A stretch of 64,000 nt of DNA from Vicinamibacterales bacterium (lineage in GTDB: Bacteria > Acidobacteriota > Vicinamibacteria > Vicinamibacterales > UBA2999): positions 200,559 through 264,558 of the forward strand of contig JBEBGV010000001.1 of assembly GCA_040081265.1 (NCBI GenBank), given 5' to 3'. This document shows, one piece after another, positions 37,558 through 55,164 of the stretch (position 1 is its first letter; every line of letters starts with the position of its first letter). The notes beneath the pieces were generated by a model. It saw nothing but the letters and a program-made list of their open reading frames with translations, made no database searches and was not told where the DNA came from. The translations under genes and the position numbers were made by a program.

Positions 37558-38307
37558 CTAGTTGACGGTGCGGCCCTGGTTGGCAACAGCCGCGGCCGCC
37601 CGCTTCACCGCCTCCGCATCGCCCAGATAGAACTTCTGCAGCGGCTTCAGCTCGTCGTTGAGCAAGTACACGAGCGGAACTCCGGTGGGGATGTTCAGCT
37701 CCACGATCTCTTCTTCTGACACGTTGTCCAGATACTTCACCAGCGCGCGCAGGCTGTTGCCGTGCGCAGTGATCAGTGTCCGCTGCCCGGCCCTGATGCC
37801 TGGAGCGATGGTGTTGTGCCAATAGGGAAGAAAACGCGCCACGGTGTCCTTCAGCGACTCGGCGAGCGGGATTTCGTGTTTCTTGAGAGACGCGTAGCGT
37901 CGGTCGTGTGAGGGGTGACGCGGATCTTCAGCGGTCAGCGGCGGCGGAGGAATGTCGTAGCTGCGCCGCCAGATCTTGACCTGCGCCTCGCTGTGCCTGG
38001 CGGCGGTCTCGGCCTTGTTGAGGCCCTGCAATGCCCCGTAGTGACGCTCGTTCAGGCGCCAGGATCGCTGCACCGGAACCCAGAGGAGGTCCATCTCATC
38101 GAGCGCCATCCACAGGGTGCGGATGGCGCGCTTCAACACGGAGGTGTGGGCGACGTCGAACTCGAACTTCTCCGCGGCCATCAGGCGCCCTGCTTCGCGC
38201 GCCTCCGCCCGGCCCTTGTCGCTGAGGTCTACGTCGGTCCAGCCGGTGAAGCGGTTTTCCTGATTCCACGTGCTCTCGCCGTGACGGAGCAGAACGAGTC
38301 GATACAT
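37558..38307 (-). CDS. gpmA: 2,3-bisphosphoglycerate-dependent phosphoglycerate mutase
   Basis: [10 protein letters not shown] catalytic His motif, 249 aa, and [11 protein letters not shown]. Confidence 0.93.
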
Positions 38308-38321
38308 GAGCGTGTGCGGTC

Positions 38322-41005
<2,684 letters not shown>

Positions 41006-41113
41006 GCGCGAACGGGCCGTCCGAACCTGAAAGGGGAACCGAAGCAGCATGATACCACGCGACTGAACCGGTAAGCGGGCCACATCTCCATGCGATCCAG
41101 TAATTTAAGAGCG

Positions 41114-41143
41114 TTGACTTGCCTTTGGGAGAATGCCTATGAT
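41114..41143 (+). promoter_or_regulatory. Sigma-70-like promoter TTGACT-18 nt-TATGAT
   Basis: Read directly from the sequence. About 75 nt upstream of the ATG at 41219, in an AT-enriched divergent region. Confidence 0.45.
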
Positions 41144-41218
41144 CAGCCGGTTCTGCTCCTGCCAGGGCGGGAGTGTCTCTATTAGATTCCGCGAGATTTT
41201 CAAGTGAGGCATGGGGTC

Positions 41219-42337
41219 ATGAATATTCGTCGAGTCGTCACGCTGTCCATGGCCCTTGTGGTCTTCGCGAGCGCGACATCAACACTGTTGGCGCAGCGAG
41301 GGGGCCGTGGTGGCGCTCCGAACGTGGCCGCGCAGCGTGAGGAACAGCAGCGCAACAAGAATCAGCAGGCCGACGTCGTAGCGATCAACCAGATGCTGGC
41401 GGCGGCAACCACCGCGCAGCCGGTGAGTCCGACGAGCACGGCGGCCGACGAGCAGCAGGGCGCCGTCAAGGTCACCTGGGAGATGAACCACTTCATCAAG
41501 GGCCAGGGTGGGCTGGCGTACGTGCCGTTCACCATCGTGGTCGACCGGGCGGCGCTGACGTCGGAAAAGGTTGTCGTGACCCTGCGCGCGGTCAACAAGA
41601 ACGCGCCAGCAGCCCCGGCCGCGGCGGCCCCTCCAGCCGACAACCGCAATAACCGCAATCAGCCTGCTGCCGCGCCCGCGCCGATGTACGCCTGGAACGA
41701 CTTCGACTTCTTGTCCCTCAAAGACGATGGCAAGGTGTCGCGGGCGATGATGCTGCCAGCGGGCGACTACGACCTGTTCGTCGTTGTCAAGGATCAGTCA
41801 AACGGTGACAACAAGCAGATGCCGAAATCGGGCATGCTCCGCAGGAAGCTCTCGGTGCCTGATTTTTCGAAGACCGAGCTCATGACGAGCAGCGTGCTCC
41901 TGGGCGGCATCGATGAACTGCCCTCAGCCCTCCCAGCCAATCAGCAGCGCGAGAACCCCTACACGTTCGGGCCCATGAAGGTGACCCCGACGGTGAACGG
42001 CAAGTTCGCGAAGACCTCAGAGCTGGCGCTCATCTTCTGGATCTATGGCGCTGGAACTGACGCGATTTCGCGCCGTCCGAACCTGACGGTCGACTACAGC
42101 TTCTACCAGAAGAACGCGGACGGTACCGAGAAGTACTTCAACAAGACCGCGCCTCAGGAGCTCAACTCGATGACGCTGCCGCCGGAGATGGATGGCAGCA
42201 CGGGACTTCCCGGAGTCATGTCTGTGCCGATGATGGTGTTCCCGGCCGCCGACTACCGGCTCGAGATCAAGGTGTCAGACAAGGCGTCGGGCAAGACGGT
42301 GACGCAGAATCTGAACTTCACAGTGAACCCTTCGTAG
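41219..42337 (+). CDS. Secreted hypothetical protein with a low-complexity Ala/Pro/Asn linker
   Basis: Signal peptide MNIRRVVTLSMALVVFASATSTLLAQ. Linker APAAPAAAAPPADNRNNRNQPAAAPAP. The flanks are beta-rich. Confidence 0.5.
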   Translation: MNIRRVVTLSMALVVFASATSTLLAQRGGRGGAPNVAAQREEQQRNKNQQADVVAINQMLAAATTAQPVSPTSTAADEQQGAVKVTWEMNHFIKGQGGLAYVPFTIVVDRAALTSEKVVVTLRAVNKNAPAAPAAAAPPADNRNNRNQPAAAPAPMYAWNDFDFLSLKDDGKVSRAMMLPAGDYDLFVVVKDQSNGDNKQMPKSGMLRRKLSVPDFSKTELMTSSVLLGGIDELPSALPANQQRENPYTFGPMKVTPTVNGKFAKTSELALIFWIYGAGTDAISRRPNLTVDYSFYQKNADGTEKYFNKTAPQELNSMTLPPEMDGSTGLPGVMSVPMMVFPAADYRLEIKVSDKASGKTVTQNLNFTVNPS

Positions 42338-42342
42338 CTGCA

Positions 42343-44241
42343 ATGTCGAACGCCGGAGGTATGCCCATGACCCGTCTGATCGCCTGCTGCCACGTTGCGC
42401 TCGCGGTGTCGATGGCTGGGACCACCCCGGCGTTTGCTCAGTTCTCGGCGCGGACGGCGCCGTCCCTCATTCGGCAGATCGCGGCGACGACCCAGGGCGA
42501 ACTCCGCGGGTCTGTGCTCGATGACCGTCGCCTCCCGCTTTCTGGCGTAGTTGTCTCCGCGGTGGGTTCGACCAGTGCCTTCGCGGTGACCGAGCGCGAC
42601 GGATCCTTTGTCGTCAAGAATCTTCCCGCCGGGCCGTACCTGGTCCGCGTGCACCTTCAAGGGTACCTGGCGCCGCGTGCACGCGTCGTTCAGGTCAATG
42701 GCGGCACGCAGCAGGTGTCGGCAATCTCGATGACGCCCAGGGAGGGCTCCGGCCGTCAGGTGCTCGAAGCGGGCGTTGGCGGCAGCCAGGAGCGCAGGGA
42801 CGGCGAGACCGCTGAACCCACCATCGATCGCAGCGAGGTGGCCTGGCGGTTACGGCATCTGAAGCGCAGCGTCCTCAAGGACGTCGATGAAGAGTTGTTC
42901 GTGGACGACGACAGCGAGGTCGTGGCAGGGGGGTGGACTCCCGCATATGGCGCCCGCCAGACAACGGTTGGCGGGTGGCTTACGGAGCTGCCGTTCTATG
43001 GCCGCGTGGACCTGCTGACGAGTACGTCGTTTGACCGTCCGCAGGATCTGTTCAGCCTTGATCTGGCTGCTCCCGTCGGCGTCACATCCCTGGCGCTGGC
43101 CGCGCCGATCGGGGCGGGTGACTGGTCGGTGCAGGCCGGGCTGACGCAGGGCGACATCGCGTCGTGGATTGTGTCGAGTTCGTTCGCACGCCGTGGTCCA
43201 ACGGCTCATCACTACGAGGCGGGAATTTCGTACGGTGCCCAGAGGTACATGGGTGGCAACGCCTATATGCTGGCCGCCTACTCTGACGGCAGCAGGAACG
43301 TGGGTGAGATCTACGCGACCGATCGCTGGTCAGCGAATCGTCATCTCGAAGTGAACTACGGTGCGAAATACGCGCGCTACGACTATCTGAATCATCGCGG
43401 TCTGTTGAGCCCGAGCCTGAGCGTGACCATCACCCCGGATCTCGAGAGCAGCCTTCGCCTGAATGCCTCGGCGTCCCGTCGTGAGATGGCCCCCGGTGCT
43501 GAAGAATTCCTGGCTCCCAGCACGGGGCCGTGGATGCCGCCACAGCGCACCTTCTCGCCGCTTTCTCGCCGCAGCGGGTTCGAGCGTGAACGTGTCGACA
43601 CGATCGAGGTGAGCGCCGAGCGGCAGTGGGCGGGCGATTTCATGATCGGCGTCCGTGCATTCAAGCAGGAAGTCGATGGTCAGGTCGTCACGCTGTTTGG
43701 GCTCGCGAATGCGAACTCTCCGGTCGCTGGTGTCGGGCACTACTACGTGGCCTCGGTTGGCGACTTCGACGCGCGTGGGTGGGGCCTGAGCGTGACTCGG
43801 AAGATGCTCGACGGTGTGCGCGCCTCGGTCGACTATACGGTGACCGACGCCACGTGGGGACGAGCGGGCACGGATGCGCTGCTGCTCTCGAGAGTCGCCG
43901 GCTCGACCGTCCGCAGCGATACTGAGCGCACATACGACTTGAAAGCGGCGGTCGAGAGTGAGCTCCCGCAGACCGATACCCGTTTTTTCGTGGTCTACAA
44001 GATCAACTCCGGGTTTGCCTCACCCGACAGAAGCGCGCCGCAGCGCAACGTCGGCGCCCGGTTCGACGTGCAGGTCAATCAGGGGCTCCCATTCCTGAAC
44101 TTCGCCACATCCCAGTGGGAGATGCTCGTTGCGGTCCGCAATATGTTCAGGGATGGTCTGAGCGACGCATCGGTCTACGACGAACTCCTGGTGCTGCGGG
44201 CTCCCAAGCGGATCATCGGCGGCCTCACCGTCCGTTTCTAG
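42343..44241 (+). CDS. Outer-membrane beta-barrel protein with an N-terminal CarboxypepD_reg domain
   Basis: Signal peptide ...TTPAFAQ. GSVLDDRRLPLSGVVVSAVGSTSAFAVTERDGSFVVKNLPAGPYLVRV. The C-terminus is GGLTVRF. No obvious TonB box or plug was recognised. Confidence 0.6.
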   Translation: MSNAGGMPMTRLIACCHVALAVSMAGTTPAFAQFSARTAPSLIRQIAATTQGELRGSVLDDRRLPLSGVVVSAVGSTSAFAVTERDGSFVVKNLPAGPYLVRVHLQGYLAPRARVVQVNGGTQQVSAISMTPREGSGRQVLEAGVGGSQERRDGETAEPTIDRSEVAWRLRHLKRSVLKDVDEELFVDDDSEVVAGGWTPAYGARQTTVGGWLTELPFYGRVDLLTSTSFDRPQDLFSLDLAAPVGVTSLALAAPIGAGDWSVQAGLTQGDIASWIVSSSFARRGPTAHHYEAGISYGAQRYMGGNAYMLAAYSDGSRNVGEIYATDRWSANRHLEVNYGAKYARYDYLNHRGLLSPSLSVTITPDLESSLRLNASASRREMAPGAEEFLAPSTGPWMPPQRTFSPLSRRSGFERERVDTIEVSAERQWAGDFMIGVRAFKQEVDGQVVTLFGLANANSPVAGVGHYYVASVGDFDARGWGLSVTRKMLDGVRASVDYTVTDATWGRAGTDALLLSRVAGSTVRSDTERTYDLKAAVESELPQTDTRFFVVYKINSGFASPDRSAPQRNVGARFDVQVNQGLPFLNFATSQWEMLVAVRNMFRDGLSDASVYDELLVLRAPKRIIGGLTVRF

Positions 44242-44286: not shown

Positions 44287-44326
44287 CCGAATCCGACCCG
44301 ATTCGGGATAATGGATGCGCTATCCC
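44287..44326. promoter_or_regulatory. Two adjacent palindromes: CCGAATC-N6-GATTCGG and GGGATA-N10-TATCCC (candidate activator sites)
   Basis: Read directly from the sequence. About 100-130 nt upstream of the -24/-12-like element. Confidence 0.3.
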
Positions 44327-44358
44327 GTATCTTGAACGACCGGCGAGGCTGAGTGGTA

Positions 44359-44406
44359 GGATCCCCGTTAAACAACTGATTTTTATTGGTTTATCTGGCG
44401 GGATCC
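44359..44406. promoter_or_regulatory. GGATCCC...GGGATCC inverted repeat bracketing an AT-rich island with an IHF-like site
   Basis: The core is cgttaaacaactgatttttattggtttatctggc. The minus strand of 44369-44381 reads AATCAGTTGTTTA, which fits WATCARNNNNTTR. Confidence 0.3.
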
Positions 44407-44417
44407 CGGGAGGGCCG

Positions 44418-44433
44418 CGGTACGTCGTTTGCT
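44418..44433 (+). promoter_or_regulatory. Sigma-54 (-24/-12) promoter-like element CGGTACGTCGTTTGCT
   Basis: Compared with TGGCAC-N5-TTGCW, the GG and GC are correctly spaced, the -12 TTGCT is perfect and the -24 hexamer has two mismatches. It lies 69 nt upstream of the kinase GTG. Confidence 0.4.
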
Positions 44434-44501: not shown

Positions 44502-47417
44502 GTGACCACAAGTCGGCTCTCAGGCGGCGCGACCCCAGCCTCACGGTGGGGGCATTCGGCAATCCCAATTGTCGTCACGGCGTTACTGGTCTGCCTGGGC
44601 CTGGCCAACGTCGCCGCGCTGGCCACCTGGCGAGAGGTTGAGGATGGCGTCCTCTGGCGCCTGAGCCCCGAAGGCGTGACCGCCTTCGAAATTGCCCCGA
44701 ACACACCGGCCGCCCAGGTCGGTCTCGAGCCGGGGGACCTTCTCCTGGCCGTCGACGATCGCGCCGTTCAGGACGTCGCTGACGTCGGTGACGCTCTGGC
44801 CGGCGTCGGACCGGGTGAATCGGTTCGATACACGGTCCTGCGCCTCGGCACTCGAGAAGTGCTGGACGTGCGGCTCGCACCCATCCCCAACGCGTCGGGC
44901 GCCCTCTATTTCCTGCTCGCAGCCGTCGGCATCTTCAGCCTTCTCGTGGGTGCCGCCGTCAGATTGCGACGCCCCTTCGATCAGGCCACCCTGCACTTCT
45001 TCTGGCTGTCGGCGGCGTTTTTCGGTCTCTTCACCTTCTCATTCAGCGGACGCCTCGACCGTCTGGACTGGGTGTTCTACTGGGGCGACGTCACCGCCAC
45101 GCTGCTGCTGCCCCCGCTTTTCCTGCATTTCACCCTTGTCTTCCCGGAGCGCACGCGCCGCTGGACCTATCGCGTCCTGGGACGGTCGGTGCTCCCGCTC
45201 ATCTACGTGCCTGCGGCGATCCTGGCCACCGCGCGCATCGTCGCGGTGCTGCGAAGCGCCTCGGACGCGTCGGCGTTCATCCGCGTGGTCGAGATGCTCG
45301 ATCGGCTCGAGCTCTCGTATATGGCGCTCTGCTTCATCATGGGGCTGGCCACCCTCAGCTTCGCGGCCGGCGAGGTCCGTTCGATCACCGGGCGGCGGCA
45401 GCTGCGATGGATTGCCTGGGGCACAGCCCTTGGCGTGGGGCCGTTTGCGTGCGGCTACGCGATACCTTACGCGCTCGGCGTGGAACCATCGCTTCCAATG
45501 CAGCTCTCGGTCATCCCGATGAGCCTGATTCCCCTGTCGTACGCGTCGGCGCTGGTCCGCTACCGCCTGCTCGACATCGAAATCATCGTCAAGCGCGTCT
45601 TCGTGTACGCCGTAGCGCTCGCCGCGGTGCTGGCGATTTATGTCGTGCTGCTCGAGGGCGCCGACCGCGTGTATCGCACAGGCGAGGGCGGTCGCGACTG
45701 GATCATCGTCGTTCTTGCGATGCTGGTGGCTGTCTTGCTGGCGCCGCCGGTCAAGGGCGCCGTCCAGACGATGCTCGATCGTCTGTTCTATCGCGACCGC
45801 TACGACTACAGGCGTGCGCTGGTGGGTTTTGCCCGGGACCTCAACAGCGATCTCGACCTGCATCGGCTGGCAGACCGGCTCGTCGGCAGGGTTGTCGACA
45901 CGCTCCTGGTCGACCGCATGGCGCTCATGCTCGCTGATGAAATCACCACACACTTCGGATCCATTCGCGCGTCAGGCTTCGGCGATCACCATCCACCCGC
46001 CATGCACCGGATGTCAGGTGTCGGCGGCCGGCTGAGTGAAGGGCACATCGTGACCCTCGACGACCCGGTTGCCGTCAGCCGGTTTGCGGTCGAGGAGATC
46101 GAGTTCTGGCGGGACGCAGGTCTCTACTACTTCGTACCGTGCGTGGCCAACGACGGTGCGATGGCGGTGCTGGCGCTCGGGCGCAAGTCGTCCGGGGAGC
46201 CGCTGAACAGCGAAGACATCGGTCTGCTCACGGCGGTCGCCGGGCAGATGGCGACCGCGCTCGAGAACGCGCGCCTCTACCGACAGCTCCACGTGAAGGC
46301 CCAGGAACTGGACCGGCTTCGCACCTTCAACGAGAACATCCTCGAGTCGCTCGACAGCGGTCTGCTGGTGCTCGATCTCGACGATCGCATTGTGCGCTGG
46401 AATACCGCCCTCGAGGAGATGTACGGCCTTTCCCGAGTCGAGGTCAGCGGGCGTCGTCTGGGTGAGGTGTTCGACGCTGCCTTCGTCGAAACGGTCATCG
46501 CGGCCCGTCGTCAGGGATCGGGCGCCATGGCGAGGGCCCGGACCGTCCTCACCGGGCGAGGAACCGCGCAGGGACGTTCGATGATTCTCACGCTCGCGGT
46601 GGTTCCGCTCCGCTCGGCTGACGATGGTGGCCGGACGACCACGGCGGGGACGATCGTGCTGCTCGAGAACGTGACCGAACGCGTGCAGCTCGAAGAGCAG
46701 TTGCAGATCTCCGAAAAGATGGCGTCGATCGGCTTGCTGGCAGCTGGCGTCGCTCACGAAGTCAACACGCCGCTGACAGGCATTTCGAGCTTCACACAGA
46801 TGTTGCTCGAGGGTGCAAGCCCTGACGATCCACGCACGCGTCTCCTCGAGAAGATCGAACGTCAGACGTTCAGGGCAGCCAAGATCGTCAACAGCCTCCT
46901 GAACCTGTCGCGGCCCGTCGCTGGTGGTGCCACCGACGTGGCGCCGGTCGACCTCAATACGGTCATCACCGACGTTCTCTCGTTACTCGAACACCAGTTC
47001 GAGCTATGCCGTATCAAAGTGCGTCGCGAGCTCCACCCCGATCCGGTGCCGGTGCTGGGGACCGAGTACAAGCTGCAGCAGGTGTTCCTGAATCTCTTCC
47101 TCAATGCGAAAGACGCCATGCCCAAGGGGGGCTGGCTGTCCATTTCCACGAGCGAGGACGCCGGACGCATCACCGCTGAGGTCAGCGACACGGGGTCTGG
47201 TATCCCGGCCGACCACCTGTCCCGGATCTACGACCCGTTCTTCACGACCAAGGTGATTGGACAGGGAACGGGTCTCGGGTTGTCGATCTCCTACGGCATT
47301 GTCCGCGAGCACAATGGCACCATCGACTGCGAAAGTTCGCTCGGACAGGGCACGCGATTCATGATCGGATTTCCCGCGGTGCAGGCCGAGCGCGGGTTGC
47401 GCGCCGCGCAACGCTGA
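44502..47417 (+). CDS. Sensor histidine kinase: TM, PDZ, multi-TM, GAF-like, PAS, HisKA and HATPase domains
   Basis: 971 aa with a GTG start. PDZ-like GLEPGDLLLAVDDRAV...VRYTVLRLG between TM1 and roughly eight further helices. H-box VAHEVNTPL, N-box LNAKDAMP, G1 DTGSGI, G2 GTGLGLS. Confidence 0.85.
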   Translation: MTTSRLSGGATPASRWGHSAIPIVVTALLVCLGLANVAALATWREVEDGVLWRLSPEGVTAFEIAPNTPAAQVGLEPGDLLLAVDDRAVQDVADVGDALAGVGPGESVRYTVLRLGTREVLDVRLAPIPNASGALYFLLAAVGIFSLLVGAAVRLRRPFDQATLHFFWLSAAFFGLFTFSFSGRLDRLDWVFYWGDVTATLLLPPLFLHFTLVFPERTRRWTYRVLGRSVLPLIYVPAAILATARIVAVLRSASDASAFIRVVEMLDRLELSYMALCFIMGLATLSFAAGEVRSITGRRQLRWIAWGTALGVGPFACGYAIPYALGVEPSLPMQLSVIPMSLIPLSYASALVRYRLLDIEIIVKRVFVYAVALAAVLAIYVVLLEGADRVYRTGEGGRDWIIVVLAMLVAVLLAPPVKGAVQTMLDRLFYRDRYDYRRALVGFARDLNSDLDLHRLADRLVGRVVDTLLVDRMALMLADEITTHFGSIRASGFGDHHPPAMHRMSGVGGRLSEGHIVTLDDPVAVSRFAVEEIEFWRDAGLYYFVPCVANDGAMAVLALGRKSSGEPLNSEDIGLLTAVAGQMATALENARLYRQLHVKAQELDRLRTFNENILESLDSGLLVLDLDDRIVRWNTALEEMYGLSRVEVSGRRLGEVFDAAFVETVIAARRQGSGAMARARTVLTGRGTAQGRSMILTLAVVPLRSADDGGRTTTAGTIVLLENVTERVQLEEQLQISEKMASIGLLAAGVAHEVNTPLTGISSFTQMLLEGASPDDPRTRLLEKIERQTFRAAKIVNSLLNLSRPVAGGATDVAPVDLNTVITDVLSLLEHQFELCRIKVRRELHPDPVPVLGTEYKLQQVFLNLFLNAKDAMPKGGWLSISTSEDAGRITAEVSDTGSGIPADHLSRIYDPFFTTKVIGQGTGLGLSISYGIVREHNGTIDCESSLGQGTRFMIGFPAVQAERGLRAAQR

Positions 47418-47429
47418 GGCGGCACTCCT

Positions 47430-48884
47430 ATGGCAACCAAGGGCACCATCCTCGTCATCGACGACGAGGAAATCATGCGCGAGATTCTCGACGCCCTGCT
47501 GACGCGGGAAGGCTACAGCGTGAGCCTGGCCAGCGATGCGGCGGCCGGGCTCGAACTTGCACGCACCTCGTCATTCGACGCAGCGGTCGTGGACGTGATG
47601 ATGCCCGGCATGGACGGCATCACTGCGCTCGACGAGTTGAAGAAGATCGACGAAGAGCTGCCGGTGCTGATGATCACTGCCTTTGCGTCAGTCGAGAACG
47701 CCATCGCCGCGATGAAGCGTGGGGCGTTCGACTACATCACCAAGCCTTTCAAGAACGACGAGGTGCTGATCGTCGTCCGCAACGCTGTCGAGCGACGGCG
47801 ACTGGTGGACGAGAACCTCGCCCTCAAGCGGAATCTCCAGGCCAAGTCCCAGAATTTCGCCGGAATCATTGGACGCAGCTCGCGGATGAAGGAGGTCTTC
47901 GACCTCATTCTCCAGGCGGCACCGAGCCGCTCAACGATCCTGATTACCGGAGAAAGCGGCACGGGCAAGGAACTTGTCGCTCGCGCCATTCACACCCATT
48001 CGCCTCGGGCCGAGCGTTCGTTCGTCACCGTGAACTCGGGTAACCTGCCACCCGATCTGCTCGAATCCACCTTGTTTGGGCACGTCAAGGGTGCATTCAC
48101 CGGCGCCGCCTACTTGAAGAAGGGCCTCTGTGATCTCGCCGACAAGGGCAGCATCTTCTTCGACGAAATCGGGAACGTACCCGTCGAGACCCAGGCGAAG
48201 CTCCTGCGCGTCATCCAGGAGCGCGAGTTCATGCGGCTCGGCGGAATGGAGACCATCAAGGTCGATACGCGTATCGTTGCCGCGACCAACTGCGACCTGA
48301 AAGAGATGGTAGAAGAGGGCACCTTCCGCGAAGATCTCTACTACCGCCTGCACGTCATCAACATCTACCTGCCTCCGCTGCGTGAGCGCAAGGACGACGT
48401 GCCGCTGCTTGTTCATCACTTTCTCGAGAAGTACGCCGAAGAAAACAACCGACGTGACCTGGAGCTGACCCCGGAAGCGCTCGACGTGCTGACCGACTAC
48501 AACTGGCCCGGCAACGTGCGAGAGCTGGAGAACGTCATCGAACGTGCGGTCGTGTTGAGCGCGGGTGCGCGCATCGGCACCGAGCTGATCCCTGAGCACG
48601 TGCGTACGCCGCAGGGCTTTCAGATTCCGAGGTTTGTCGTCCCGCCAGAAGGGATTTCGTTCAAGGACGTCGTCACCAATGTTGAGAAGCGCCTGATTGA
48701 GTCGACGCTCGAGGCGGCTGGCGGTGTTCAGAAGCGGGCAGCGGAGCTGCTCGGCATCAAGCCGACCACGCTGAACGAAATGATCAAGCGCTACGAAATC
48801 GGACCGCGGCGGCGAAAGTCTGGCGAGGACGATGGGAGTGTCGCGTCGAGAACACGGTCGTCGACGCAGACGAACCGCGAGTAG
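47430..48884 (+). CDS. Sigma-54-dependent response regulator (NtrC family enhancer-binding protein)
   Basis: Receiver domain (DDEE...VVDVMMPGMDG...KP), AAA+ domain (GESGTGKE, GAFTGA, RVIQEREF, ATN), and a Fis-type HTH (QKRAAELLGIKPTTLNEMIKRY). Confidence 0.92.
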   Translation: MATKGTILVIDDEEIMREILDALLTREGYSVSLASDAAAGLELARTSSFDAAVVDVMMPGMDGITALDELKKIDEELPVLMITAFASVENAIAAMKRGAFDYITKPFKNDEVLIVVRNAVERRRLVDENLALKRNLQAKSQNFAGIIGRSSRMKEVFDLILQAAPSRSTILITGESGTGKELVARAIHTHSPRAERSFVTVNSGNLPPDLLESTLFGHVKGAFTGAAYLKKGLCDLADKGSIFFDEIGNVPVETQAKLLRVIQEREFMRLGGMETIKVDTRIVAATNCDLKEMVEEGTFREDLYYRLHVINIYLPPLRERKDDVPLLVHHFLEKYAEENNRRDLELTPEALDVLTDYNWPGNVRELENVIERAVVLSAGARIGTELIPEHVRTPQGFQIPRFVVPPEGISFKDVVTNVEKRLIESTLEAAGGVQKRAAELLGIKPTTLNEMIKRYEIGPRRRKSGEDDGSVASRTRSSTQTNRE

Positions 48885-54733: not shown

Positions 54734-55081
54734 CTATGCCTTGGCAGTGAAGCTGCGGACGGCGTCTGCTTCGCTGTCGTACGTCTCGAACACGGTCAGA
54801 AGCTTCGTGATCGCGAGCAGGTCCGTAATGCGCTTCGTGAGGTTCAGCAGCTTCAGCTGACCGCCCTCACGGGTCACCGTCGTGTAGGTCCGGACGATTT
54901 CACCAAGGCCGGCGCTGTCGATGTACGGCACATCGGCCAGGTTGAGCACGATCTTGCGGCGGCCCTGGCTGGCCAGGCTGTTGATCTTGTCTTTCAGGAG
55001 CTCGTCGCCCTCACCGAGCGTCATCTTGCCCTTGAGATCGAGCAGGGTGACATCCCCCGCCGACCGTTCCTCGATCTGCAT
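54734..55081 (-). CDS. STAS-domain anti-sigma-factor antagonist (SpoIIAA/RsbV-like)
   Basis: 115 aa. Conserved phospho-serine motif YIDSAGLGEIV. Its stop is 4 nt before the UbiA-family start. Confidence 0.85.
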   Translation of the reverse strand: MQIEERSAGDVTLLDLKGKMTLGEGDELLKDKINSLASQGRRKIVLNLADVPYIDSAGLGEIVRTYTTVTREGGQLKLLNLTKRITDLLAITKLLTVFETYDSEADAVRSFTAKA

Positions 55082-55148
55082 GCCCGTTAGTCCTCGAATT
55101 GACGTTCTGAGCCCGCGATTCTAACACACGCAAGACAGGCCAGACCGG

Positions 55149-55164
55149 GGCCACACGCGTGCCG
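55149..55164 (-). promoter_or_regulatory. Sigma-54 (-24/-12)-like element CGGCACGCGTGTGGCC (minus strand)
   Basis: GGCACG gives a near-perfect -24, the -12 reads TGGC (one mismatch to TTGC), and the spacing is correct. It lies about 70 nt upstream of the STAS ATG. A TGtTAGAAT extended -10 (55118-55126) lies downstream as an alternative. Confidence 0.3.

Follow-up and report, generated by a model that had tools for sequence, protein, structure and literature searches.

A widespread PDZ-headed polytopic sensor kinase of Acidobacteriota, paired with a sigma-54 activator

Two groups of described sensor kinases come close to the one reported here. Song et al. (2012) described a Streptococcus mutans kinase whose PDZ domain has one transmembrane (TM) helix on its N-terminal side and nine on its C-terminal side, and called this arrangement characteristic of ComP-like kinases (PMC3353171). 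A 2022 modelling study assigned ten TM helices to Bacillus ComP, with an extracellular PDZ domain between TM1 and TM2 that resembles the PDZ domains of CtpB, DegS and AlgW and was proposed to bind ComX (PMC9620489); PDZ, HisKA_3 and HATPase_c have also been listed together as a family (Muley et al. 2019; PMC6411480). The second group is PrsK/PrsR, the PEP-CTERM regulatory two-component system defined by models TIGR02916 and TIGR02915 (Haft et al. 2006; PMC1569441). Here we analyze a stretch of 64,000 nt from a Vicinamibacterales genome of the phylum Acidobacteriota (referred to as the window), in which a GTG-start open reading frame (ORF) at 44502–47417 of the forward strand encodes a 971-aa sensor histidine kinase. 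The kinase is composed, in order, of TM1, a PDZ domain, nine further TM helices, GAF, PAS, HisKA and HATPase domains, and its gene lies next to that of an NtrC-class sigma-54 activator. This kinase–activator system is real, common and uncharacterised.

A reading made earlier from the nucleotide sequence alone (the sequence-only reading) had placed an NtrC-class regulator with a GAFTGA motif directly after the kinase and proposed that the two are coupled. ORF and Pfam analyses recovered exactly this arrangement, with a gap of 12 nt between the genes, and the kinase and activator were adjacent in 20 out of 20 loci spanning the phylum, which upholds the coupling. The activator matched Response_reg (107 bits), Sigma54_activat (226.5 bits), AAA_lid_14 and HTH_8 (46 bits), and both D55 and GAFTGA are readable in its sequence; its best NCBIfam models were AtoC, NtrC, ZraR and PrsR, all under their cut-offs.

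We found the kinase to be widely distributed. A word-indexed search returned more than 3800 matches. The top 120 each covered the full length, shared 68%–86% identity and were built from the same domains; these 120 carried only the names "ATP-binding protein," "PAS domain S-box protein" and "NtrC family sensor kinase." Searching with the N-terminal 450 aa identified one full-length orthologue in each of the 41 genomes of the order, with 46%–73% identity over this part. Across the phylum, a match over residues ∼20–450 was present in 237 out of 301 sampled genomes, mostly as a single copy. Among representatives clustered at 50% identity, there were 366 clusters at E ≤ 1e-30 and 2748 at E ≤ 1e-10, and a cluster look-up of the kinase gave generic names only. 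Orthologues from other classes also had PDZ matches, and several scored above the cut-off of HisKA_7TM. Our literature searches retrieved no paper on this kinase of Acidobacteriota. The sequence-only reading had allowed that the architecture might turn out to be a common, already characterised kinase family; it is common, and the family is not one that has been characterised.

Two side observations concern the distribution. A wider organism survey with the single kinase protein retrieved only uncultured metagenome-assembled genomes (MAGs) of Vicinamibacterales type. Nine MAGs labelled Bifidobacteriaceae, Cyanobacteriota or Acidimicrobiia (L083, L084, L089, L090, L095–L097, L100 and L103) had a Vicinamibacterales-type copy at 55%–59% identity, which suggests mislabelled or contaminated bins. 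Within the order, a few genomes had extra paralogues of 861–995 aa besides the orthologue (G031:C9, G031:C4, G030:C8, G030:C7 and G020:C33). These are 28%–32% identical over residues ∼58–447, indicating that the PDZ–bundle module has been duplicated in places.

To characterize the architecture, we combined hydropathy with two AlphaFold2 models, one of the whole kinase (predicted local distance difference test [pLDDT] score 83.8) and one of aa 1–450 (pLDDT 85.9, predicted template modelling score 0.79), both computed from an alignment of 88 homologues that also served for the conservation and charge counts below. Hydropathy and AlphaFold agreed on ten helices in all, TM1 plus nine between aa 134 and 418. 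The sequence-only layout of one TM helix, a PDZ segment, and GAF, PAS and kinase motifs on a 971-aa chain thus stands, with nine later helices in place of the "about eight" first counted. The transmitter has the boxes of a class I (HisKA) kinase, namely HEVNTPL, NLFLNAKDAM, DTGSGI and GTGLGL, all of them invariant or nearly so, with an invariant H752 in the first. The GAF, PAS and HisKA/HATPase parts are cytoplasmic, and since nine helices separate them from the PDZ domain, the latter is periplasmic. Loop charges pointed the same way: each predicted cytoplasmic loop had a net charge of +1.2 to +2.1 and each short predicted periplasmic loop one of −1.5 to +0.4, with Lys plus Arg totals of 17.3 for the inner loops versus 6.6 for the outer loops. 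The N terminus of the kinase is accordingly inside, and every test applied puts the PDZ domain (aa 45–125) in the periplasm between TM1 and the bundle, the location that the sequence-only reading had supposed.

The PDZ segment noted in the sequence-only reading is a genuine PDZ domain of the HtrA/DegS type. It matched PDZ_2 (aa 55–125, 42.5 bits) and PDZ_6 (aa 64–114, 41.6 bits), against a Pfam cut-off of 27 for each, and was well defined in the AlphaFold models (pLDDT about 90). Its nearest solved relatives by sequence were PDZ domains of DegP, DegQ, DegS and an RseP homologue, the best being DegP-like (54.6 bits). A Foldseek search with the N-terminal model returned, as best matches, DegS PDZ domains with the bound outer-membrane protein (OMP) peptides YQF and YRF, superposing with a root-mean-square deviation of 1.4–1.8 Å over ∼86 residues at 24%–26% identity. 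The most conserved PDZ positions were D48, G49 and W52, followed by G58, G78, D79, L81, D94 and Y110; of these, all but L81 and D94 were invariant or close to it. The top three belong to the loop and strand in which a peptide carboxylate would be held, and the conserved motif E47-D48-G49-V50 is akin to the ELGI and YIGI loops of HtrA proteases. This conservation is consistent with a working groove and is not proof of one.

We then examined the control region of the operon, which holds a sigma-54 promoter element and two candidate activator sites (Table 1). Within the window alone, −24/−12-like matches were no commoner than expected by chance; the element ahead of the kinase is convincing because it is conserved across loci. 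An element scoring at least 9/12 was found just upstream of the kinase in 19 out of 21 orthologous loci and in 39 out of 55 further loci, compared with a background of 0.126 per 550 nt, and all nine loci from other classes among the first 21 scored at least 10. Two or three palindromes of the form RTYCAA-N4-TTGRAY, spaced 20–21 bp apart and about 95–135 nt upstream of the −24/−12 element, were present in almost every one of the first 21 loci and in 31 out of 55 further ones; in the window, site 1 lies at −117 from the 16-mer, as in the orthologues. When the 5.3-Mb genome was scanned with a matrix built from the 21 orthologous promoters, no tandem pair of the motif emerged other than sites 1 and 2. 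Tandem palindromes so placed ahead of a −24/−12 element are what one would expect for an NtrC-type activator. Since motif, spacing and activator are conserved together, we infer binding of the palindromes by the activator that the operon itself encodes, and self-activation of the operon. This sigma-54 promoter with tandem palindromic sites, which precedes the operon across the phylum and implies autoregulation, is a new feature of this system.

Also new is the gene directly upstream. The sequence-only reading had noted that the preceding operon ends with a barrel protein terminating in GGLTVRF, which is correct, and the linkage between barrel and kinase is stronger than was known at that time: in 48 out of 76 loci (18 of the first 21 and 30 of 55 other-class loci), the gene immediately preceding the kinase, in the same orientation, encodes a homologue of this barrel with a hydrophobic-x-Phe tail. 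The homologues are 570–760 aa long and end in GG[ILV]x[ILVF]xF, often with R, K, Q or N as the penultimate residue. We saw no terminator-like site 3′ of the barrel gene in the window, so that read-through into the kinase operon is possible. In one same-class locus (L023:11356-13054), the barrel gene was split into two overlapping ORFs, through a frameshift or an assembly error.

Table 1. Coordinates of the kinase operon, its control region and nearby features in the window
Feature	Position	Strand	Basis or remark
Sigma-70-like promoter TTGACT-18-TATGAT before the secreted-protein/barrel pair	41114..41143	+	Consensus scan only, 10/12
377-aa protein, first gene of upstream pair	41204..42337	+	No Pfam or NCBIfam match
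Outer-membrane barrel protein, 632 aa, ends GGLTVRF	42343..44241	+	CarboxypepD_reg plus weak TonB-receptor barrel match (Pfam)
Candidate upstream activator site 1, ATTCGGGATAATGGAT, palindrome RTYCAA-N4-TTGRAY	44301..44316	.	Matrix, 15 bits
Candidate upstream activator site 2, ATCCCGTATCTTGAAC, 21 bp from site 1	44322..44337	.	Matrix, 13.7 bits
AT-rich spacer between activator sites and promoter	44367..44396	.	Read from sequence; possible DNA-bending site (conjectural)
Sigma-54 −24/−12 element CGGTACGTCGTTTGCT, about 70 nt before kinase start	44418..44433	+	10/12 consensus; GG and GC at the right distance
Sensor histidine kinase, 971 aa	44502..47417	+	Pfam, NCBIfam, AlphaFold
TM1, aa ~20-42, N terminus cytoplasmic	44559..44627	+	Hydropathy; AlphaFold helix 12-42; positive-inside count
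PDZ, HtrA/DegS type, aa 45-125, periplasmic	44634..44876	+	Pfam, PDB sequence match, AlphaFold, Foldseek
Nine-helix membrane bundle, aa 134-418	44901..45755	+	AlphaFold helices; TM2-TM8 = HisKA_7TM region in orthologues
GAF, aa 452-587, juxtamembrane motif DRLFYRDRYDYRRAL just before	45855..46262	+	Pfam
PAS, aa 610-708	46329..46625	+	Pfam PAS, 43.1 bits
Transmitter: HisKA aa 745-805 and HATPase_c aa 855-959	46734..47378	+	Pfam; Foldseek kinase cores
NtrC-class sigma-54 activator, 484 aa: receiver (D55), AAA+ with GAFTGA, Fis-type helix-turn-helix (HTH)	47430..48884	+	Pfam
STAS upstream region	55118-55164	-	STAS gene ends at 55081

Our best explanation, held tentatively and as a little less than probable, is an Acidobacteriota-wide PDZ-headed polytopic kinase with a ComP-like layout and a distantly PrsK-like membrane/GAF core, which feeds an NtrC-type activator and is proposed to sense OMP tails. 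We counted the domain composition, the topology, the fold and type of the PDZ domain, the constraint on its loop, the barrel linkage, the kinase–activator pairing, the promoter and the precedent of ComP, a peptide sensor of like layout, in its favor. Sensing of OMP C termini by the PDZ domain is plausible. The domain would bind an exposed peptide C terminus in the canonical groove formed by the E-D-G-V-x-W loop, strand beta1 and helix alpha2, the likeliest ligand being the hydrophobic-x-Phe tail of unassembled outer-membrane barrels and above all of the one encoded upstream. Binding would shift the PDZ domain against the bundle, and the change would travel from TM10 through the YDYR juxtamembrane helix, GAF and PAS to the DHp helices, altering phosphorylation of H752. 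Phosphotransfer from H752 to D55 would then assemble the AAA+ ring of the activator at the tandem sites, which would open the operon's own sigma-54 promoter, in positive feedback, together with promoters of other target genes. A bolder version, which we consider unlikely, makes the pair a core OMP-assembly monitor of Acidobacteriota in which the PDZ domain captures the hydrophobic-x-Phe tail of the barrel encoded alongside, or else of whichever barrel is left uninserted, and drives self-amplifying sigma-54 transcription with neither proteolysis nor an anti-sigma factor.

Several observations weigh against OMP-tail sensing by the PDZ domain. The carboxylate loop has an Asp at its first hydrophobic position, which is hydrophobic in HtrA PDZ domains, and the kinase PDZ may therefore not bind a free C terminus. 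Loci that have no adjacent barrel (28 of 76) conserve the loop motif just as well, and we detected no covariation between the PDZ loop and the penultimate residue of the barrel over 47 pairs. Because outer-membrane proteins in general end in hydrophobic-x-Phe tails, the upstream barrel is not set apart by having one. Searches for tandem sites, single sites, PEP-CTERM genes and the STAS operon found no target beyond the operon itself. The assignment of the palindromes to this activator is drawn from their co-conservation, in a genome with 28 such activators, and should be read as provisional. Finally, the bundle is more conserved than the PDZ domain, and may be the true sensor in its place.

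In the main rival to PDZ-based sensing, which we regard as somewhat unlikely, the nine-helix bundle is the primary sensor of a membrane-embedded or lipid-linked cue, such as a polyprenyl-linked glycan intermediate or bilayer stress, and the PDZ domain serves only to cap it, to make contacts in a dimer or to dock a partner. Nothing else in the N-terminal half of the kinase is as conserved as the bundle, which holds most of the invariant polar and aromatic residues of that half (H165, D189, Y193, Q300, W303, Y319 and P322). The bundle had no counterpart among the top 50 Protein Data Bank matches of the N-terminal model, all of them PDZ domains, and the full-length model matched only kinase cores, that of ZraS included. 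Three orthologues that are 35%–37% identical to the window kinase (P0273, P0322 and P0321) matched HisKA_7TM (PF16927) over TM2–TM8 (aa 135–355) at 33.6–50.5 bits, against a cut-off of 28.6; the window kinase itself gave no match to this model even at E ≤ 10. From about TM8 onward the bundle is homologous to PrsK, as residues ∼343–607, a stretch that includes LFYRDRYDYRRAL (the YDYR motif) and the GAF domain, align to PrsK model positions 205–476 (48.6 bits, E 5e-13). Arithmetic on the aligned positions suggests that the PrsK model begins close to TM2, in which case it would be without a TM1–PDZ head. Glycosyltransferase genes downstream of the operon in the class also count in favor of this rival. 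Against a bundle sensor, one would hardly expect a passive cap to keep its groove-entrance motif intact throughout the phylum, as the PDZ domain does, and the equivalent domain of ComP is a proposed ligand site (PMC9620489).

The homology to PrsK raises the question of membership. The sequence-only reading had been reminded of PrsK/PrsR-type exopolysaccharide regulators, and a resemblance does exist: the window kinase was the only one of the 48 TIGR02916 matches in its genome to cover the membrane/GAF part of the model. The resemblance is distant, however, and does not amount to membership. The kinase scored 115.2 bits against a TIGR02916 cut-off of 300 and the activator 391.5 against a TIGR02915 cut-off of 502.6, and no protein in the genome passed TIGR02916. 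The system is related to PrsK at a distance, falls outside that family and is probably not a functional equivalent. That it could nevertheless act as the acidobacterial functional equivalent of PrsK/PrsR, controlling PEP-CTERM protein and exopolysaccharide genes, we consider highly improbable, even with glycosyltransferases as neighbours. As the sequence-only reading had stated, the window has no exosortase or PEP-CTERM gene; elsewhere the genome has one exosortase and about ten PEP-CTERM ORFs, several of them with sigma-54-like elements. The exosortase (PF09721, 259.8 bits) is on another contig (C135, in the region 81340-87705), close to two other activators, and none of the PEP-CTERM genes has a kinase-type activator site upstream. 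Neither a PrsT-type tetratricopeptide repeat (TPR) lipoprotein nor an exosortase was found among the ten genes neighbouring the kinase. Across the phylum, exosortases were present in 65 out of 301 genomes versus 237 out of 301 for the kinase, and many genomes had the kinase only. As a separate observation, two PEP-CTERM genes lie about 4–5 kb from the exosortase, both preceded by good sigma-54-like elements (TGGCGCTCGAATTGCT and TGGCTGTTGACTTGCT).

The layout shared with ComP bears on novelty as well as on function. A PDZ domain as the extracytoplasmic sensor of a kinase, the role proposed in the sequence-only reading, has precedents: the TM1–PDZ–nine-TM layout is known from ComP-like kinases, and such a sensor is not new in principle (PMC3353171, PMC9620489, PMC6411480). 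The shared layout, together with the proposed binding of ComX by the ComP PDZ domain, raises the possibility that the kinase is a ComP-like quorum-sensing receptor for a secreted, possibly modified, signalling peptide (PMC9620489, PMC3353171). Positive autoregulation, typical of quorum circuits, would agree with such a role. Even so, we judge it improbable. No comQ- or comX-type gene and no other small pheromone or modification gene is adjacent, the two upstream genes encoding the 377-aa protein and the 632-aa barrel, and the conserved neighbour is the barrel of 570–760 aa. Pheromone receptors usually diversify, whereas this is a single-copy core gene, well conserved over its N-terminal 450 aa and nearly invariant in its PDZ loop. 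A HisKA_7TM match was also obtained in a Bacillus subtilis control genome, where the matched protein is not necessarily ComP.

The decisive input could instead be cytoplasmic, with a metabolite, the redox state or a second messenger acting through GAF or PAS and the extracytoplasmic part serving as an anchor. Both domains are present and conserved, and the best full-length matches of the kinase core are AtoS- and ZraS-like. Yet a highly conserved PDZ-plus-bundle module of 420 aa far exceeds what an anchor needs, and no cofactor motif was identified in either the GAF or the PAS domain, so we rate this reading as decidedly improbable.

We looked for target genes beyond the operon. With 28 sigma-54 activators in the genome, targets cannot be assigned from promoter type alone. 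Single sites near sigma-54-like elements pointed to three genes for outer-membrane proteins of ∼1000 aa with CarboxypepD_reg, which we treat as weak leads. These three paralogues (C28:39396-42400, C28:42789-45900 and C146:72500-76400) share an upstream layout composed of a palindrome-like site containing CTTGAAT, the motif ATTTCYTAA, GGAACGGATTTYGCT (with GG-N10-GC spacing) and a long leader. Their promoters may be of either the sigma-54 or the extracytoplasmic function (ECF) type. Candidates from two other searches were set aside. Several PEP-CTERM genes had sigma-54-like elements, and none had a site for the kinase-type activator. Upstream of the STAS-glycan operon in the window, the −24/−12-like CGGCACGCGTGTGGCC (55149-55164) is absent from three orthologous loci with intact upstream sequence (L022, L024 and L025), which share an extended −10 element, TGTGYTARAAT, before the operon. 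With the former absent and the latter kept, the STAS-glycan operon looks sigma-70-driven.

The wider neighbourhood is conserved to varying depths. The 377-aa protein encoded ahead of the barrel had a homologue in the same place in 10 out of 11 sampled loci of the same class (L022–L031) and in none outside it; this protein and the convergent glycosyltransferases are kept only within the class. For neither the barrel nor the 377-aa protein did sequence searches against NCBIfam and the Protein Data Bank return anything useful. Further upstream in the window, on the reverse strand, are genes for a histidine phosphatase, an enolase and a GlgC-like nucleotidyltransferase (37558-41083). In several classes there are loci in which enolase is no more than about 7 kb from the kinase, probably reflecting old housekeeping synteny.

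In soil, Acidobacteriota rank with the most abundant bacteria, and to our knowledge almost none of their signalling systems has been studied. The two-component system described here, which roughly four in five genomes of the phylum retain as a single copy, has a defined sensor layout, a conserved promoter of the sigma-54 type that appears to be self-activating and a conserved outer-membrane partner gene, and offers a concrete experimental entry point. Handles for such work include the small soluble PDZ domain for peptides, the 16-bp palindrome for the activator and the promoter for a reporter. If the PDZ domain does read OMP tails, this would be a second, non-proteolytic solution to envelope-stress sensing; and if the pair monitors OMP assembly, a major soil phylum would have coupled a DegS-like input to the output of a two-component system. 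If it does not read them, the kinase would still link ComP-type and PrsK-type sensors as a larger family of polytopic kinases, some PDZ-headed and some headless.

Set beside the described systems, the kinase shares different parts with each. Like DegS and AlgW, it has a periplasmic HtrA-type PDZ domain, with hydrophobic-x-Phe tails of OMPs available as candidate ligands. It departs from DegS in its output, which takes the form of a kinase and of sigma-54 transcription and not of anti-sigma proteolysis, and in its loop, which reads E-D-G-V in place of Y-I-G-I. AtoS/AtoC and ZraS/ZraR give the best full-length matches of transmitter and activator, and ZraS is among the kinase-core fold matches; none of the scores reaches its equivalog cut-off, and in their sensor parts these systems are unrelated to the window kinase.

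PrsK/PrsR resembles the system in its polytopic kinase, which combines a juxtamembrane segment of YDYR type with a GAF-like domain, in the REC–AAA+–HTH sigma-54 activator encoded in tandem and in glycosyltransferases that are often nearby. It differs in that the window kinase has an extra PAS domain and a TM1–PDZ head (the PrsK side being deduced from model coordinates), no PrsT neighbour, a distribution among genomes that is independent of exosortase and scores far under the cut-offs. Compared by published descriptions, the sensor half shares its layout with that of ComP-like kinases (Bacillus ComP and TCS-15 of S. mutans NCTC11060), with TM1, an extracytoplasmic PDZ domain of ∼80 aa, nine further TM helices and both termini inside. 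The two part ways beyond the membrane: ComP has HisKA_3, no GAF or PAS domain, the NarL-type partner ComA and adjacent comQ/comX, whereas the window kinase has GAF, PAS and HisKA (PF00512), an NtrC-type sigma-54 partner and a barrel neighbour, in a diderm phylum.

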